This document shows, one piece after another, positions 3,230 through 33,752 of a stretch of DNA of 64,000 nt (its first letter is position 1; each line of letters opens with the position of its first letter). The stretch is from a virus. The stretch spans positions 2,614 through 66,613 of IMG/VR virus record IMGVR_UViG_3300011253_000949, one strand, 5' to 3'. The notes under the pieces were generated by a model. It saw only the letters and a program-made list of their open reading frames with translations. It made no database searches and was not told where the DNA came from. The translations under genes and the position numbers were made by a program.

Positions 3230-4417
3230 ATGCAAGTTTACAATGATCCAAACACCACGCCATCATCCATTGAAGGTGCTGGCTCCTCTCAAATGAATAC
3301 CTTCTTCTGGTGGCGGAAGGCTCTGGTTGAAGCACGGAAAGAAATGTTCTTCATGCCGATGGCGTCTGTAAAAGACATGCCTAAGCATATGGGCAAAGAG
3401 ATCCGTGTGTATCACTACATCCCACTGCTCGATGACCGCAACGTCAACGATCAGGGTCTCGATGCTGCTGGTGCAGTACATGCTGACGGTAACCTGTATG
3501 GTTCCTCGAAGGACATTGGCGTTATCTCTTCGCGTATCCCAACGCTGACTGAAAACGGTGGCCGCGTTAACCGCGTCGGTTTCACACGTATTCAGCGTAA
3601 AGGTTCGATCACCAAGTTCGGCTTCTTCCATGAGTTCACACAAGAATCCATGGATTTTGACAGCGATGCAGAACTGTATAGTCACCTCTCCACTGAGATG
3701 GTTTCCGGTGCTGTTCAGCTGACTGAAGCTGTCCTGCAGAAAGAGCTGTTGGCTGGTGCTGGCGTGATCATCTACACAGGTGACTCCACTACAGACATCA
3801 CTGTTGATGGTGAATCTGCTGACCCAGCTGTGGTTGACTATGCAGACCTGATGCGTCTGTCACGTATCCTGTACGACAACCGCACTCCAAAGCAGACCAA
3901 GGTTATCGCTGGTTCCCGAATGATCGACACAAAAACGATCAATTCCGGCCGTGTGATCTACATTGGTTCTGAACTGGAATCCACTGTGCGTCAGATGGTT
4001 GACTCGTTTAGCGACAAGGCATTCATCTCTGTTGAGCAGTATGCAAATGCAGGCACAATCCTGAACGGCGAAATCGGTACGATCGATCAGTTCCGTATCG
4101 TGGTTGTTCCTGAGATGCTGCACTGGGCAGGTGCCGGCGCTGCTGTAACCACTAACCCTGGTTACGAAGAAGATGGCGGCAACTACAACATCTACCCGAT
4201 GCTTGTTGTTGGTGCAGAGAGCTTCACCACAATTGGTTTCCAGTACTCTGGCAAATCAATGAAGTTCAAGATCACTACCAAGATGCCTGGCAAAGAGACT
4301 GCAGACCGCACTGACCCATACGGTGAGACCGGCTTCAGCTCGATCAAATGGTATCACGGTACAATGATCCTGCGCCCTGAGCGTCTGGCTGTCGTTAAGA
4401 CCCTCGCAAAGGTCTAA
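3230..4417 (+). CDS. Major capsid protein (N4 gp56 family)
   Basis: [45 protein letters not shown] and [13 protein letters not shown] are N4-gp56 signature sequences. Confidence 0.97.
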
Positions 4418-29548: not shown

Positions 29549-29905
29549 TTATTTAATGACAGCATGAACGATGCAGCGAAACAATGCATCTTTGGTTTGC
29601 TGGATTTTTGGCAACTGATCGAATGGAACGATGCAGGGGTGTGTAGGTGGCATAGCTTCAGGATTTTTCTCTTTACCATACACCCAACCCTCTGAAATCT
29701 TCTGGGCCATCCAGTTATTATGTGATGCACTGTCGTCAGCGTCTGGGTTGTCAATGTGAAACTGAACACCATTCAAGGCGCTAATCTGTTGCCAAACAGG
29801 AGCTTCCTCCCATGTTGGTTGGTTCATATCACCGTTTGCAGCGCACCATGCACGATTTGCCTCATGAGCAACCATGGCTGCGTAAAGATGGTTTTTGGGA
29901 GTCAT
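29549..29905 (-). CDS. RyR (ryanodine-receptor repeat) domain protein
   Basis: HNNWMAQKISEGWVYG...THPCIVPFDQLP...KD is the RyR repeat signature. Confidence 0.8.
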   Translation of the reverse strand: MTPKNHLYAAMVAHEANRAWCAANGDMNQPTWEEAPVWQQISALNGVQFHIDNPDADDSASHNNWMAQKISEGWVYGKEKNPEAMPPTHPCIVPFDQLPKIQQTKDALFRCIVHAVIK

Positions 29906-29921
29906 ATAAAATTTCCTTGTG

Positions 29922-30515
29922 CTATGCTGCTTCAGAGACAAGGTCTCGGATACTGTCTTCCGAAGCATGATTTGGCAACTCAATTTCTTGAGCCCAGGTG
30001 GGGTAGAAGATGCTCAAGTTACCGCCAAGCTTGACAGTATCATGTGCAATATCAGGGTGTTCTTGCCACTGAACAGCCTTGACCAGATGTTTATTCACAT
30101 ACTGCAAGATCTCAATATCATCAGGGATCAGATAATATTGCGCATCATGGATGTGAGCGATCGGTCGGATCTGTAGTCTGTGTTTGCCTGCACGGACTGT
30201 CTTCATGAATTCAGAAGCAGCTCGTGTGTTGAGCAAGCACCAAGATTGACCCAAAGCATTACCGGCAGTACGGCCTTCGGCCTCTGCCTCATAGGGTGTT
30301 GCAGAATTACCGCGGATAACTTGGTGGAGCAATGGTGTGCGAACACGCAAACCAAAGGCAGCACTAACATAGCCTGTACGTGAGGCTTCATCGAGCTTGG
30401 TTGCTACCCACTCATCACTCACTTTGTAGAGCTCGTGATATTTGTGCTCGATCTGCTGAGCGACAACTTTAGAGAAGCCACCTTTTGCCATCAGGGTGAT
30501 GTAGGTTCCTTGGTA
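29922..30515 (-). CDS. DNA polymerase C-terminal subunit, segment after the 47-nt gap (YQGTYITLM...; motif C HIHDA)
   Basis: Frame reads TAC CAA GGA ACC TAC ATC ACC CTG into the ATG at 30491; AFGLRVRTP, RTAGNALGQS and IHDAQY are family A motifs. Confidence 0.9.
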   Translation of the reverse strand, partial: YQGTYITLMAKGGFSKVVAQQIEHKYHELYKVSDEWVATKLDEASRTGYVSAAFGLRVRTPLLHQVIRGNSATPYEAEAEGRTAGNALGQSWCLLNTRAASEFMKTVRAGKHRLQIRPIAHIHDAQYYLIPDDIEILQYVNKHLVKAVQWQEHPDIAHDTVKLGGNLSIFYPTWAQEIELPNHASEDSIRDLVSEAA

Positions 30516-30562
30516 AGTTCATTTCTCTCATCCCCCCCCTAGTTTACTAGGGGGGGTCAGAG
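30516..30562 (-). other. 47-nt coding gap; putative programmed ribosomal bypass element
   Basis: ACT|CTC TGA CCCCCCCTAG TAAA CTAGGGGGGGG ATGAGAG AAATGA ACT|TAC: matched ACT codons, in-frame stop, strong hairpin. Confidence 0.7.
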
Positions 30563-30703
30563 AGTGAGAGCGAAGGTTGGCATCTTGCTCTCTTGGCGCT
30601 CCTCTGAATACAATGTTTTAGTTGAATTAACCCGTTCTTTGTCATGACGTAAAACAGAAATTTCAGTCACTTCACTTATGGTTTGGTTGATTTTTAGCAC
30701 CAT
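30557..30703 (-). CDS. DNA polymerase C-terminal subunit, first 47-48 codons (ends ...RQESKMPTFALT)
   Basis: Hand translation MVLKINQTISEVTEISVLRHDKERVNSTKTLYSEERQESKMPTFALTL*; GAGGA RBS; carries the first half of motif B. Confidence 0.85.
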   Translation of the reverse strand: MVLKINQTISEVTEISVLRHDKERVNSTKTLYSEERQESKMPTFALTL

Positions 30704-31271
30704 TTATCCTCGCTCTTTGTACGCGTTGAAAACGTAGGGACTCATTTAAATCTCCTTCAATGCCTAGCTCTTTTGCCATGCGTCTAAGTTTTACAGACAG
30801 GTAAGGAACTTTATACGGAACACGTTGTGAAAGTGACCAATACGATTCTCCATTAATGACAGATTGCAAGCAGTCAAAGAATTCATCTTTGGTCATTCGA
30901 TTGGTGTATGTCCGTAGTCCAGTATCGGCAGCATGTTGGCTGTTACCTGAAGAGTTTACCCACTCAAGATTGTGTGTTGAGTTATCAAAACGGTTCCCAT
31001 TTTTATGGTTAACTTCAGACAATCCTAGAGAATTTGGGATGTGGGCTTCAGCCACTAAACGATGGACGTAGTGTGATGTGCCTTTCCCATATTTCCACAA
31101 ACTGACCTGAAGATATTCAACTTGTTTATTTGAAGAAGGACGCAAAATTTTGCCTTTAAAGGGATAGATGGATCCATCACGTCCTAATGTTGACCGATCT
31201 ACTGAACGTACCGTACCAAGCGTAGAGACTTCGTACAGCCCTTCATAATTAACTACCGGTAAGTAGCTCAT
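30672..31271 (-). CDS. NUMOD4-HNH homing endonuclease, free-standing inside the split DNA polymerase gene
   Basis: YEGLYEVSTLGTVRS (NUMOD4); VHRLVAEA...VNHKNGNRFDN...NLEW (HNH); overlaps both polymerase parts. Confidence 0.92.
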   Translation of the reverse strand: MSYLPVVNYEGLYEVSTLGTVRSVDRSTLGRDGSIYPFKGKILRPSSNKQVEYLQVSLWKYGKGTSHYVHRLVAEAHIPNSLGLSEVNHKNGNRFDNSTHNLEWVNSSGNSQHAADTGLRTYTNRMTKDEFFDCLQSVINGESYWSLSQRVPYKVPYLSVKLRRMAKELGIEGDLNESLRFQRVQRARINGAKNQPNHK

Positions 31272-33261
31272 ACAGTTCTGCTCCTTTCATTGATTTGCCC
31301 AGATACTCTACATCCTCGTCAGAGTGGAAGTAAATGTTGGTGTTACCTACTTTCGCTTTATAGCAAGTTGCATTTTCAGGGGCTATTTCGATATCAGGCA
31401 TACGCTCAGCAAAGTAAGACTGAGCTCTCAGACAGTGTCCGTCAAACCCATCCAAGTAGACTTTTAGCTTGTTAGGATCTTTGGTCGTGAGAGCGGAGAT
31501 CATGTCTTCGAGAGAGTTGAAATCCAATCCAATCATGAGCCAACCGTCAGGAGCAGTGAAGCAGCTCTTGATCAGCTTGGCATACTTGGTTCCTGTGGCA
31601 GGAATGGTTTGAAGGTTTGGATTTGAAGAGCTCAGTCGACAGGAAACCGTACCACCCAGGTTGAAGTTACCGAAGAGGTAATGGCATCCATCTGGACCTT
31701 CTACAGCACTCTCCAACGCAGGGATGAAGGTGGTGTAGATTTTGTCCACTGATTTGTAATCCAACAGAGCATTGATGAGATCAATGATGTGAGAATCTTC
31801 AGTGTAGGCTTTGAGCTTTTCAAGCACTTCAGCTTTGGTGGCTGGTTGTTTGGTTTTGGTTCTTTCAATGACCGGTAGACCAAGATGTTCATGCAGAAGG
31901 TTCTGCAGCTGATCTGGACTGTTGGGATTGAATTTGTCGGGGTAGTCAGCCAGAACAACACGCTTGATTTTAAGCTCATTGTTCCGCTTCTCTACCCACT
32001 TTTCAGCAAGCATGTAGGTGAAATCTTGGATGTGCTGTTCTTGATAGATACGCTCAAGTGCACTGTCTCGATCCACCTCCAAAAGAACCTTGGCCTGAGC
32101 CACTTGGTTCATATCGATAGACATACCTGTCAGCTGCATTTGGATGATGTCGATGATTGCTGGCTTGAAGATCTCTTCGTAGAGTTCCAGCTGATCATCT
32201 GCCACCATCTTATCCCACCACTTATGGTACACGTACCACGTGGAGCATGCGTCGATGAGATTGTACTCAAGCAACTCTGGCAAAGGTATCTTGGTGATGT
32301 CCTTGATCTCTTCAACGGCATAGTTGCCGGCAAACTCTTGAGCCTGATCTTTGAGACCCAGCTTGTTACCGGCACAAGTGTTGGTGGCGAGATAGGAGAT
32401 GAGCTTGGTATCATGCCAATTTGAGAGCATGATCTCGAGACCATTGAGCAGACCTTTGGTATCTATCAAATGCTCCATGAAGAGCTGGTAGATTAAGACT
32501 GTGGCATCGTAGCTGATGTTGTGAAACAGGAGAGGTTGCTCAAACTCACAAAAGAATTTGACGAGGAGTTTGCGTACAGCCTCACCATGAATTCCCATGT
32601 CGATGGCAAAGGCAATGCCTTCATGTTGGTTCCAAGCAAAGCTGATGGTGCCAAGACCTGCACTGTAGTGCTTGAGAGAAAAGGCCTCAATATCACAGGC
32701 CAAAGGACATTGCATGTCCATAAGCTTCTGGAGCCATACAGCGATGTCAGCAGGGGTGTGAGGGTACTCAGCAGTCTTGAGGATGTCATGCCCTGGTTCT
32801 TGGTAGGTGCCTTTCATATGGCTCCACAGAGCGTCTAATGCAGAGGCAATACGTACCCGGGTAGGTGTCGGGTTGTAGAAGACCTGACGGTAGTTTGGCA
32901 CAAAGATGACATTGAACTGACCAGCCATGCTGGCAGGGAACTTGTTTGGAAGGACGTAGCCAAGATAGGGATCTACCTTAGCCACGCCTACCAGAGTCTT
33001 GAAGTAATCGCTGTCAGTGACAAGGATGTACTTGGTGTCGATCTCACTGAGCAATTCGAGCATGTCAGTGAGAAAGACTTTCTGATCAACTACCTTGGTT
33101 TTCTTGCCAGTTGTGTAGAGCTGGTAAGCAATGACATCTTCAGGATCGATGAGAGAAGGGTCGAGGTACTCTTTGGTCATACCTGCACTATCAAGCTTGG
33201 GAGCCAAAATGCAGATGGGGTAGGTTGAGTTCTCGTGATCTGTAAATGTCTGGAAGTCCAT
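31249..33261 (-). CDS. DNA polymerase family A (N4 gp39-like), N-terminal subunit with 3'-5' exonuclease and motif A
   Basis: CDIE, FHNISYD, RLSSSNPNLQTIP, motif A GLDFNSLE, DGHCLRA; stops before motif B. Confidence 0.92.
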   Translation of the reverse strand: MDFQTFTDHENSTYPICILAPKLDSAGMTKEYLDPSLIDPEDVIAYQLYTTGKKTKVVDQKVFLTDMLELLSEIDTKYILVTDSDYFKTLVGVAKVDPYLGYVLPNKFPASMAGQFNVIFVPNYRQVFYNPTPTRVRIASALDALWSHMKGTYQEPGHDILKTAEYPHTPADIAVWLQKLMDMQCPLACDIEAFSLKHYSAGLGTISFAWNQHEGIAFAIDMGIHGEAVRKLLVKFFCEFEQPLLFHNISYDATVLIYQLFMEHLIDTKGLLNGLEIMLSNWHDTKLISYLATNTCAGNKLGLKDQAQEFAGNYAVEEIKDITKIPLPELLEYNLIDACSTWYVYHKWWDKMVADDQLELYEEIFKPAIIDIIQMQLTGMSIDMNQVAQAKVLLEVDRDSALERIYQEQHIQDFTYMLAEKWVEKRNNELKIKRVVLADYPDKFNPNSPDQLQNLLHEHLGLPVIERTKTKQPATKAEVLEKLKAYTEDSHIIDLINALLDYKSVDKIYTTFIPALESAVEGPDGCHYLFGNFNLGGTVSCRLSSSNPNLQTIPATGTKYAKLIKSCFTAPDGWLMIGLDFNSLEDMISALTTKDPNKLKVYLDGFDGHCLRAQSYFAERMPDIEIAPENATCYKAKVGNTNIYFHSDEDVEYLGKSMKGAELYELLTGS

Positions 33262-33752
33262 TAGAAGAGCATCCTGCTTGCTAGGTAATGATCAATGACC
33301 CGAAGCGTTGTTGACTCATAGCTATGAAGTTTCATAGGCATGTCGATCAACGTGTACGCTTCAGGTCGGGTGCGTGGAAAGTCAGCGATGACAGGGAGAA
33401 ACTGCATGACTGTATCAGGAAGTGCATCACGCAAATCTTGATAACCTGTGCAGGGAGCCAACAGAGTTTTCAGGCCTTGTTTTAGGATGAGTTCATCCCG
33501 CTCTAAAGCAAGCTTTTCTGTATGTGCATCAAACGCATCTTGGAAGATGGAAGGATGTGCTGGCACCTTACGAGCAAGAGCCCGCGATACACCTGTGAGT
33601 TGGCTATAAAACCTACCAGATACCAGAAAATCGGTGTTTCCTGTCAAAGCGTGCTGTTTGTCATGGAGCTTATCAATCTCATCATCACTCCTGGAGACGG
33701 ATCTTCGCATCAGCTTTTCGATAAGATCAGTGATAAATTCTGAGACAGTCAT
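33261..33752 (-). CDS. Conserved N4-like protein between helicase and polymerase (gp38-like)
   Basis: Synteny; RDALPD and RTRPEAYT motifs. Confidence 0.65.
   Translation of the reverse strand: MTVSEFITDLIEKLMRRSVSRSDDEIDKLHDKQHALTGNTDFLVSGRFYSQLTGVSRALARKVPAHPSIFQDAFDAHTEKLALERDELILKQGLKTLLAPCTGYQDLRDALPDTVMQFLPVIADFPRTRPEAYTLIDMPMKLHSYESTTLRVIDHYLASRMLF

Follow-up and report, generated by a model that had tools for sequence, protein, structure and literature searches.

A putative 47-nucleotide translational bypass element at the edge of an HNH cassette in the split DNA polymerase gene of an N4-like phage

The 64,000-nucleotide (nt) stretch of viral DNA analysed here, hereafter the window, covers positions 2,614 to 66,613 of IMG/VR record IMGVR_UViG_3300011253_000949 (66.6 kb, approximately 90% complete according to IMG/VR). 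Its family A DNA polymerase (PolA) gene is divided into three pieces, with an HNH endonuclease gene between the first and the second and a 47-nt coding gap between the second and the third. All locus coordinates are window positions, read on the minus strand, and the cassette named in the list is delimited further below.

33261-31249, minus strand: PolA piece 1, 670 amino acids (aa), with the exonuclease domain, the N-terminal part of the polymerase domain and motif A
31383-31252, minus strand: cassette-borne C-terminal extension of piece 1 (its last 44 codons), followed by the stop at 31251-31249
31271-30672, minus strand: HNH gene, 199 aa, a free-standing homing endonuclease of NUMOD4 + HNH_3 type by its Pfam domains
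30703-30557, minus strand: piece 2 open reading frame (ORF), 48 aa, ending in PTFALT (last codon ACT 30565-30563), CTC and TGA
30703-30638, minus strand: leader that newly extends the downstream subunit at its N-terminus, 22 codons long when counted from ATG 30703, with a conserved GTG at 30700
30637-30563, minus strand: cassette-borne copy of 25 polymerase codons (ERVNS...RQESKMPTFALT), whose last codon is the putative take-off ACT 30565-30563
30562-30516, minus strand: coding gap, 47 nt, made up of 44 nt and the putative landing ACT 30518-30516
30518-29922, minus strand: PolA piece 3 (TYQGTYITLM...), 198 aa plus stop, with the second half of motif B and then motif C

Piece 1 matches Pfam DNA_pol_A_exo1 and positions 12-199 of the 381 positions of DNA_pol_A, piece 3 matches DNA_pol_A positions 224-343, and the HNH ORF matches NUMOD4 (E 5e-11) and HNH_3 (E 7e-8), so that ORFs and Pfam matches bear out the split 670-aa PolA followed by a NUMOD4-HNH gene that an initial annotation of this DNA had described. 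In this uncultured marine phage, the polymerase pieces are closest to those of N4-like phages (Schitoviridae); specifically, piece 3 is 68% identical to the N4 DNA polymerase, starting at the first residue of the piece. Neither a second PolA nor any PolB is found in the 66.6-kb, approximately 90% complete record.

In an alignment with the N4 and Zuri polymerases, the position of the gap is occupied by an unbroken PTFALTYQGTY(I/K)TLM. The 25-codon copy in piece 2 aligns to ESVNS...PTFALT of N4, and the C-terminal end of piece 2 reads ...RQESKMPTFALT-L-stop. A total of 44 nt separate ACT 30565-30563 from ACT 30518-30516, and a 47-nt skip from the one to the other, which changes the reading frame, joins the flanks into the N4/Zuri sequence, as the initial annotation had proposed. 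The piece 2 frame is closed by TGA 30559-30557 and the piece 3 frame by TGA 30521-30519 and TGA 30530-30528, and the two open frames do not overlap; therefore no read-through and no single frameshift can join the pieces, which upholds a further claim of that annotation. Take-off from the CTC codon with TGA in the A site and landing on CTT or TTA was rejected because it yields the wrong frame. The assigned start of the downstream subunit, ATG 30703, holds less firmly. A GAGG lies 4 nt 5' of this ATG and 7 nt 5' of GTG 30700, and the GTG is present in all nine cassettes of this type but the ATG in only six, so the start may be the GTG, in which case the take-off codon would be codon 46 rather than 47.

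The gap and its surroundings contain the following RNA features.

30592-30566, minus strand: 5' stem-loop, GAGAGC 30592-30587 pairing with GCTCTC 30571-30566, the 3' arm abutting the take-off codon
30564-30560, minus strand: lower stem, CTCTC pairing with GAGAG 30529-30525
30562-30560 and 30559-30557, minus strand: CTC and TGA at the start of the gap
30556-30533, minus strand: upper hairpin, CCCCCCCTAG / TAAA / CTAGGGGGGG, 10 base pairs (bp) with a TAAA loop; an extra (eighth) G follows at 30532
30521-30519, minus strand: in-frame stop TGA before the landing codon

The lower stem includes bases 2 and 3 of the take-off ACU. A fold of 91 nt around the gap reaches -37.1 kcal/mol (z -5.0), with 0 of 200 shuffled sequences as stable, and none of the other short hairpins among the 42 inverted repeats of the window is as strong as that of the gap. 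Sequence and folds agree with the initial annotation on the hairpin, its CTCTC/GAGAG extension and the GAG (30527-30525) located 6 nt 5' of the landing ACT, as well as on the sense codon CTC that lies between take-off and stop, which T4 does not have. This phage uses CTC commonly (17 per 1000), and a rare A-site codon was therefore rejected. No phage tRNA that might perform the hop is encoded in the window.

The gap persists in independent samples. Logan contigs from four runs of four studies (2017-2024) span 30301-30800 in one or two pieces and bridge the gap; no joints were seen in the contigs covering this stretch. Contig X1 is identical to the window and may be its source, whereas X4 (2017), X8 (seawater, 2022, depth 173) and X13 (sediment, 2024) represent a variant that is approximately 96.6% identical, with up to 17 substitutions and two single-base deletions in 500 nt. 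The only indels of the variant, at 30539 and 30550, cost each arm of the hairpin a single base, a G in one and a C in the other, which results in a hairpin one pair shorter and a gap of 45 nt instead of 47. The loop reads UUUA instead of UAAA, and both ACT codons are kept. In piece 3, all eight substitutions are synonymous, including those in codons 3 and 9, 5' of the first ATG (codon 10), and in piece 2 three of the six changed positions are synonymous. Taken together, the bridging contigs, the synonymous change and the lack of another polymerase make an assembly artefact or a dead gene unlikely. The reality of the insert is thereby supported; of the findings that the initial annotation had named as potentially fatal, a lack of read support for the insert is countered by the bridging contigs, and a decaying polymerase pseudogene appears unlikely.

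Comparison with close relatives delimits the element to which the gap belongs. The six nearest IMG/VR relatives (L035-L040, 95-97% identical in piece 3) have a continuous polymerase without HNH gene and gap. In a nucleotide alignment with the 97%-identical L036, identity is 93-100% per 60-nt bin on both flanks; L036 has no counterpart for approximately 31450-30640, drops to about 55% identity over the 25 polymerase codons 5' of the gap, and returns to 93-97% directly after the landing codon. The stretch that L036 lacks thus runs from approximately 31450 to 30519, with the gap as its 3' edge. On this comparison of sequences, the gap is the 3' end of a mobile HNH cassette of approximately 0.93 kb (about 31450-30516), which consists of the 44-aa tail of piece 1, the HNH gene, the 22-aa leader, the 25-codon polymerase copy and the gap. 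The features of a free-standing HNH cassette are all present, namely an HNH domain, presence and absence among relatives with clean borders, and a diverged copy of the flank. The 44-aa extension of piece 1 is conserved in L119, L120, L122 and L204, and this tail and the 22-aa leader may keep the halves of the split polymerase in contact, a role that has been proposed for MobA and MobE elements.

When IMG/VR was searched by alignment with the HNH protein, 80 loci were retained, five of which (L118, on the L090 contig, and L119-L122) carry an HNH protein 56-63% identical to that of the window, the value for L090 being 63%. In addition, a pattern combining the leader start with motif B found seven metagenome stretches (L198, L199, L200, L201, L202, L203 and L204), among which L199 equals L201 over the stretch read, L200 and L202 match L121, and L203 matches L122. 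This leaves nine distinct cassettes: the window, L090, L119, L120, L121, L122, L198, L199 and L204. The distance from GTG to the TTY codon for Phe is exactly 129 nt in all nine, and 15 of 43 columns are invariant in their leader alignment (A4). Every one of the nine carries an interruption within approximately 15 nt of motif B, which measures 40-51 nt in six of them and 5 nt in one and is a +1 insertion in the remaining two. Interruption and HNH gene co-occur as the initial annotation had anticipated: nine of nine cassettes with the HNH/leader type of the window are interrupted, and the six nearest relatives, which lack the HNH gene, are ungapped. In the six long-gap cassettes, the gap follows the same Thr codon; the gap length, the take-off/landing pair and the codons after take-off are as follows.

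Window: 47 nt, ACT/ACT, then CTC TGA
L090: 45 nt, ACG/ACC, then CTC TGA
L120: 48 nt, ACC/ACT, then TGC TAG
L122: 40 nt, ACT/ACA, then GGA TTA ..., with a stop later
L198: 46 nt, ACC/ACC, then CGC TAA
L199: 51 nt, ACC/ACC, then CGA ACG ..., with TAA in the loop

The short forms are these.

L119, 4198-4223: 5-nt insert, ACC TAG CT, then TAT
L121, 4147-4168, and L204, 4241-4262: one extra base after the motif B Phe codon (TTT-C-GCA or TTT-T-GCC)

The L119 genome is N4-like and complete, with terminal repeats; motif B would be restored there by a +5 hop onto GCU, which the same anticodon can read via G-U pairs. The +1 form of L121, L204 and L088 would need a +1 slip of tRNA-Phe; L088 (about 940-969) has the same +1 after TTT in an unsplit gene, which may be the trace of a lost cassette.

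Several signals are shared by the six long gaps. ACN stands at both gap ends in six of six, while the third base and the neighbouring spacer vary, and under wobble rules the take-off and landing codons can be read by one isoacceptor in five of the six pairs, L090 being the exception. The gap lengths (40, 45, 46, 47, 48 and 51 nt) fall into all three frame classes, which implies that the gap is not read as codons. In all six, the upper stem starts at a distance of 6 nt from the take-off codon and pairs along its full length, although six of its nine positions vary in pair type, and L199 has a different stem sequence at the same place. In L090 and L198, the hairpin loop is a C(UUCG)G tetraloop like that of T4. 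Specifically, each 5' arm forms 100% canonical pairs with its own 3' arm and 81% on average with the 3' arms of the other sequences, and only 5 of 30 cross combinations are fully paired; these counts were taken from single-sequence folds, since the MAFFT alignment (A3) misaligns the 3' arms. Additionally, the lower stem, in which take-off bases 2-3 and the next codon pair with the purine tract, covaries (CUCUC/GAGAG, GCUCU/AGAGC, CCUG/CAGG, CCCGC/GCGGG and CCC/GGG) and is weak in L122. The long gaps thus share a stem-loop that holds the take-off codon in its 5' side and is kept by compensatory change. The codon after take-off differs among the relatives (CTC, TGC, GGA, CGC or CGA), which is explained by its pairing within the lower stem. 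A purine triplet (GAG, GGA or GGG) followed by an A-rich spacer lies 6-7 nt before the landing codon in all six, and the six gap-bearing cassettes all encode TYQGT, with codons that differ synonymously.

The 5' stem-loop is formed by GAGAGC/GCUCUC in most cassettes and by AAGCGC/GCGCUU in L122. It abuts the take-off codon in seven of the nine cassettes compared with 8 of 75 uninterrupted genes, with mean energies of -10.2 kcal/mol (n = 9) and -4.3 kcal/mol (n = 75), respectively (one-sided Mann-Whitney p = 2e-5, a value that overstates independence, as the sequences are related).

Based on these observations, we consider it probable that the C-terminal subunit of the polymerase is made by programmed translational bypass of the gap. 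We propose that the HNH cassette replaced a short stretch of the phage's only DNA polymerase gene. A ribosome translating the downstream subunit would then reach ACU at codon 47 counted from the ATG, or 46 from the GTG, and meet a two-tier hairpin that holds the last two bases of this ACU and the next codon in its lower stem, with the 10-bp G-C stem 6 nt further on, such that A-site decoding would be hindered. The lower stem would in this way stand in for a slow codon by masking the A site. Peptidyl-tRNA-Thr would be released and the mRNA would slide, while the 5' stem-loop may re-form behind the ribosome, and tRNA-Thr would hop from the first ACU to the second, giving a C-subunit of 47 + 197 aa. 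Those parts of the bypass interpretation that can be examined computationally, namely a real gap, a cassette and covarying signals, are supported by the comparative evidence.

Several observations weigh against a bypass. The stop or slow codon that directly follows the take-off codon in T4 is lacking here, the TGA coming one codon later in the window and the first stop 8 codons after take-off in L122 and 6 codons after it in L199. The window hairpin is far more stable than that of T4 (-30.7 kcal/mol over 68 nt versus -17.5 kcal/mol over 71 nt), and such stability could stall ribosomes instead of allowing them to slide. The fold of L122 is weak (z -1.6), and the ACG/ACC pair of L090 is not read by one tRNA under standard wobble rules. 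The cassette arrived recently in this lineage, as judged from the 97%-identical relatives, so conservation downstream of the gap rests mainly on the 96.6% variants. All related cassettes are metagenomic and share ancestry, and their counts are not independent events; about nine leader-bearing representative proteins, from the profile search presented below, are uninterrupted, which makes interruption common rather than obligatory. No cassette was matched in cultured phages by distant blastn with the 3' part of the cassette or by tblastn with the 47-aa leader, and no RNA sequencing run is listed among the runs that hold the stretch.

The alternative that survives best does without any hop. Here, the polymerase would consist of three chains, of 670 aa, 48 aa and a C-terminal piece initiated internally, for instance at Met10 (30491), and the gap would serve only as a DNA-level shield of the HNH target. 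The first in-frame ATG of piece 3 is indeed this codon 10, nine codons after the landing codon, stops follow the take-off region, and split polymerases are tolerated in cultured N4-like phages, in which an HNH gene is annotated between two DNA polymerase genes. However, a product started at Met10 would be without Y-Q-G, the second half of motif B, which Klenow and T7 work has established as essential, and TYQGT is kept in the six gap-bearing cassettes. Codons 3 and 9, 5' of Met10, change only synonymously in the 96.6% variants, no start is conserved at or after the gap, and L090 has none in its first 15 codons. Separate chains would also leave unexplained why ACN recurs at either end of the gap and why a purine tract precedes the second ACN by 6-7 nt. 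We therefore regard three separate chains as unlikely.

Removal of the 44-47 nt from the RNA, by a small intron-like or cleave-and-ligate process guided by the hairpin, appears very unlikely. The two-tier hairpin would bring both ACN codons side by side, and a homologue of the HNH protein resides in a group I intron at nearly the same site in Acinetobacter phage nACB1 (OQ032511, L116), a cultured member of Schitoviridae. The nACB1 HNH protein is 50% identical to that of the window over 98% of its length and is encoded between a PTFA-stop and a restart that reads joined to LTYMGTW (approximately 3361-4206); this interval gives two sub-threshold matches to the Rfam group I intron family RF00028 (E 9e-9 and 1e-5). 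The nACB1 polymerase is annotated as two genes around the HNH gene, and the arrangement looks like an unannotated HNH-bearing group I intron in motif B, which we take to be of the I-HmuI kind. In the window, by contrast, no group I intron and no other Rfam family matches 29800-33400 at E <= 5, and a group I intron was rejected because the same search that finds RF00028 in nACB1 gives no RF00028 match here. A length of 40-51 nt is, to our knowledge, far below that of any self-splicing intron. Conservation at the borders is limited to AC, and the spacing before the second ACN resembles that of a Shine-Dalgarno (SD) sequence, a signal of translation rather than splicing. Additionally, the main text of Manning and Atkins (10.1101/2022.08.31.505936) describes the T4 gap as staying in the mRNA.

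That the gene is simply broken, through a recent selfish insertion, a defective phage, a decaying pseudogene or an assembly artefact, is in our view highly improbable. In favour of it, the cassette is a recent acquisition relative to the 97%-identical relatives and all carriers are metagenomic contigs. Yet contigs from three further studies over 7 years hold the gap, at a depth of up to 173, and the variants combine a compensatory double deletion in the hairpin with purely synonymous change in piece 3. In five diverged cassettes, gap and hairpin are retained and the frames downstream are intact, the interrupted gene is the only polymerase in the record, and L119, which carries the cassette, is complete with terminal repeats. 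Least probable of all is a hairpin that acts on DNA or transcription (by forming a cruciform, terminating transcripts or offering an RNase III site) and whose location in motif B has nothing to do with decoding: although the stem is a near-perfect palindrome and the antisense strands of the window and L120 fold as well or slightly better, six G-U pairs in L090, L122, L198 and L199 are compatible only with the sense strand, the sense RNA of these four folds 1.3-4.1 kcal/mol better than the antisense, a terminator was rejected, as no terminator-like site was found at the hairpin and no T run follows the stem, and the production of the polymerase would be left unexplained.

The predicted bypass element resembles the T4 gene 39/mobA/gene 60 arrangement (NC_000866) in layout. 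In both, an essential replication gene is split by an HNH cassette, which gives the upstream half a tail of approximately 44 aa (44 aa here) and the downstream half a leader, brings along a diverged version of the codons that flank the target, and closes with a non-coding gap (40-51 nt here, 50 nt in T4). The two also share paired take-off and landing codons with take-off at codon 46 or 47 here and 46 in T4, a stem that has the take-off codon on its 5' side and forms a 10-bp helix capped by a tetraloop (UUCG in T4, as in L090 and L198), a purine mini-SD 6-7 nt before landing with an A/U-rich spacer, a 5' stem-loop, and presence or absence of the cassette among near-identical genomes. In the main text of Manning and Atkins (10.1101/2022.08.31.505936), MobA elements are described as comprising a C-terminal extension (about 44 aa), an N-terminal one that precedes the bypass cassette, and a diverged flank derived from the insert, and the landing rule of gene 60 is given as GAG, GGG, GGA or AGG 5-7 nt upstream.

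The two also differ in several respects. The host gene is a family A DNA polymerase, interrupted in motif B, instead of a topoisomerase, and the phage is an N4-like podovirus instead of a myovirus. The HNH protein of the window, with NUMOD4 and HNH_3, has no similarity to gp60.1 (BLASTP E 0.92), and its leader is unrelated to gp60 residues 1-46, which confirms the earlier view that the element is sequence-unrelated to that of T4. The hopping tRNA would be tRNA-Thr (ACN) and not tRNA-Gly or tRNA-Asp, and the codon immediately after take-off is neither a stop nor rare. The main stem begins at a distance of 6 nt from the take-off codon; a lower stem, which covaries, takes up the following codon together with the mini-SD, and the hairpin has a much higher G-C content and a greater stability. 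Descent from a MobA/gene 60 element was rejected on account of the gp60.1 value, the other HNH type, PolA as host gene and the unrelated leader. Judged by these comparisons, the window element is an analogue of T4 mobA/gene 60 and not a homologue.

The main text of Manning and Atkins (10.1101/2022.08.31.505936) places all known cassettes in topoisomerase genes of Myoviridae and states that nothing similar had been reported from other phages; the word "polymerase" occurs 0 times in it, and its supplementary alignments could hold non-topoisomerase cases. A full-text literature search, judged on listings and abstracts, found no published bypass in a polymerase gene or in Schitoviridae, and HNH genes are reported to occur in N4-like phages in the part of PMC6027278 that bears on them. 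What appears new here is thus a predicted bypass that is linked to a homing endonuclease and sequence-unrelated to the only published phage family.

Three further systems share part of these features. The byps of Magnusiomyces capitatus mitochondria (Lang 2014 and Nosek 2015, as summarised in Manning and Atkins, 10.1101/2022.08.31.505936) comprise 81 elements of 27-55 nt in 12 genes. As summarised there, they are likewise short G-C-rich inserts in essential genes and small mobile elements with a sense codon after take-off, but they are mitochondrial, lack a linked endonuclease and depend on a sense codon without tRNA, whereas the window has one insert in the gene, tied to an HNH cassette and followed by a common codon. 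The nACB1 intron interrupts the same motif B codons, and a polymerase is made despite the interruption either way; it differs in that the interruption would be removed by RNA splicing, as its sub-threshold RF00028 matches suggest, whereas the window HNH gene is free-standing 75 nt upstream of the gap and without an intron match. Finally, the sister cassettes L119, L121, L088 and L204 resemble known short hops and +1 shifts, such as the prfB +1 frameshift that occurs by a P-site slip, in that tRNA-Thr on GCU or tRNA-Phe on UUC/UUU could re-pair, whereas the window needs a 47-nt hop past a hairpin. Short hops over a slow codon in E. coli are among the cases cited in the main text of Manning and Atkins (10.1101/2022.08.31.505936).

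The clustering of the insertions points to a function for the gap. The nACB1 intron site, read as GCG T|TA ACA, lies 5 nt upstream of the gap site, and the intron, the long gaps and the 5-nt and +1 inserts all fall within approximately 15 nt. This is expected if the motif B DNA is the nuclease target and any insertion immunises the carrier. We infer that the motif B DNA is the likely target of the HNH protein and that the gap protects the carrier genome from its own nuclease; in line with this, the main text of Manning and Atkins (10.1101/2022.08.31.505936) states for MobA that the bypass insert is what blocks nicking.

The interrupted arrangement is common. The HNH family comprises 395 clusters at E <= 1e-30, the best 120 of which are 59-100% identical to the window HNH protein. 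A 43-position profile of the leader and the first half of motif B, built from the nine sequences of alignment A4, matched 113 representative proteins at E <= 0.001 among 1.84 billion, and approximately 90 of these stop or lose frame within the eight codons K-x-P-T-F-A-L-T. The classes below were sorted by regular expression and are approximate, with at least five proteins misfiled (P0153, P0169, P0204, P0206 and P0218) and some short ones possibly cut by contig ends.

Stop immediately after PTFALT: 25, with 3 more that were sorted into 'other' by mistake
Stop after K-x-P: 25, the same point as the 6-nt inserts of L054, L055 and L081
Stop after PTF, PTFA or PTFAL: 13
Stop after K-x-P-T: 5
Reading frame lost immediately after PTF: 11, the same point as the +1 forms
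A single sense codon between PTFALT and the stop, the arrangement of the window: 8
Continuing through Y-x-G: 14
Unclear: 12

Six of the 14 continuing proteins are fragments of unsplit polymerases, their match to the profile being confined to its motif B half. We see about an even chance that these cases reflect a general principle, in which recoding is a repeatedly evolved means of self-immunisation for homing-endonuclease cassettes inside essential catalytic motifs. In N4-like phages, most split polymerase C-subunit genes would then carry inserts of 1 to about 51 nt in K-x-P-T-F-A-L-T, decoded through +1 slips, through short hops past a stop or through long bypass guided by a hairpin; in its long form, the gene 60 mechanism would have been invented independently a second time, with mRNA structure replacing the slow codon.

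Efficient long-range bypass has been demonstrated at the bench only for T4 gene 60, whose only published relatives are the homologous MobA topoisomerase cassettes, the yeast byps being a separate case. If the present prediction is true, an unrelated cassette has reached the same signals, and bypass would be an evolvable solution rather than a frozen accident. It would also separate essential features from T4-specific ones, given that no slow A-site codon is present here and structure seems to mask it, and would tie recoding to the self-immunity of selfish nucleases. The natural series of 40-51 nt gaps, together with the 5-nt and +1 forms, provides a ready mutational panel for reporter assays. 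Gene callers split or truncate such essential polymerase genes, and annotation of N4-like phages needs a rule for them.

Further searches define how far the element was traced. Megablast of the locus against cultured phages returned only polymerase matches of 47-56 nt, the exact window hairpin had 0 matches in IMG/VR, and the leader pattern had 0 matches in bacterial and archaeal genomes. The gap-shaped pattern found three known loci in IMG/VR and one chance match, L208, which was rejected as a gap carrier because it is not a polymerase. The leader pattern found four known contigs in IMG/VR and missed L120, which matches it locally, so the pattern scans are not exhaustive. A word-indexed protein search with the 48-aa ORF gave one near-length match (P0002, 96% identity) and no candidate among longer proteins, the latter being weak evidence.

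Among the best 80 of 152 relatives found with piece 3, 75 read through motif B and five do not (L090, L054, L055, L081 and L088). L054 and L055 (approximately 640-673) and L081 (3611-3766) carry another HNH cassette, with a zinc-finger tail and a 46-aa leader; downstream of it, 6 nt are inserted immediately after the Pro codon of K-x-P-T-F, the first three being a stop (CCT TAG CTT ACA; CCG TGA ACA ACA). L081 shows no evident matching landing codon. In L081, a helicase-like gene on the opposite strand, and not piece 1, lies upstream of the HNH gene (2539-2988); the polymerase halves may not adjoin there. On the 73.9-kb L090 contig, piece 1 lies at 70940-72961 and the HNH gene at 446; if this contig is circularly permuted, approximately 1.4 kb, including a 116-aa ORF, seems to separate the two.

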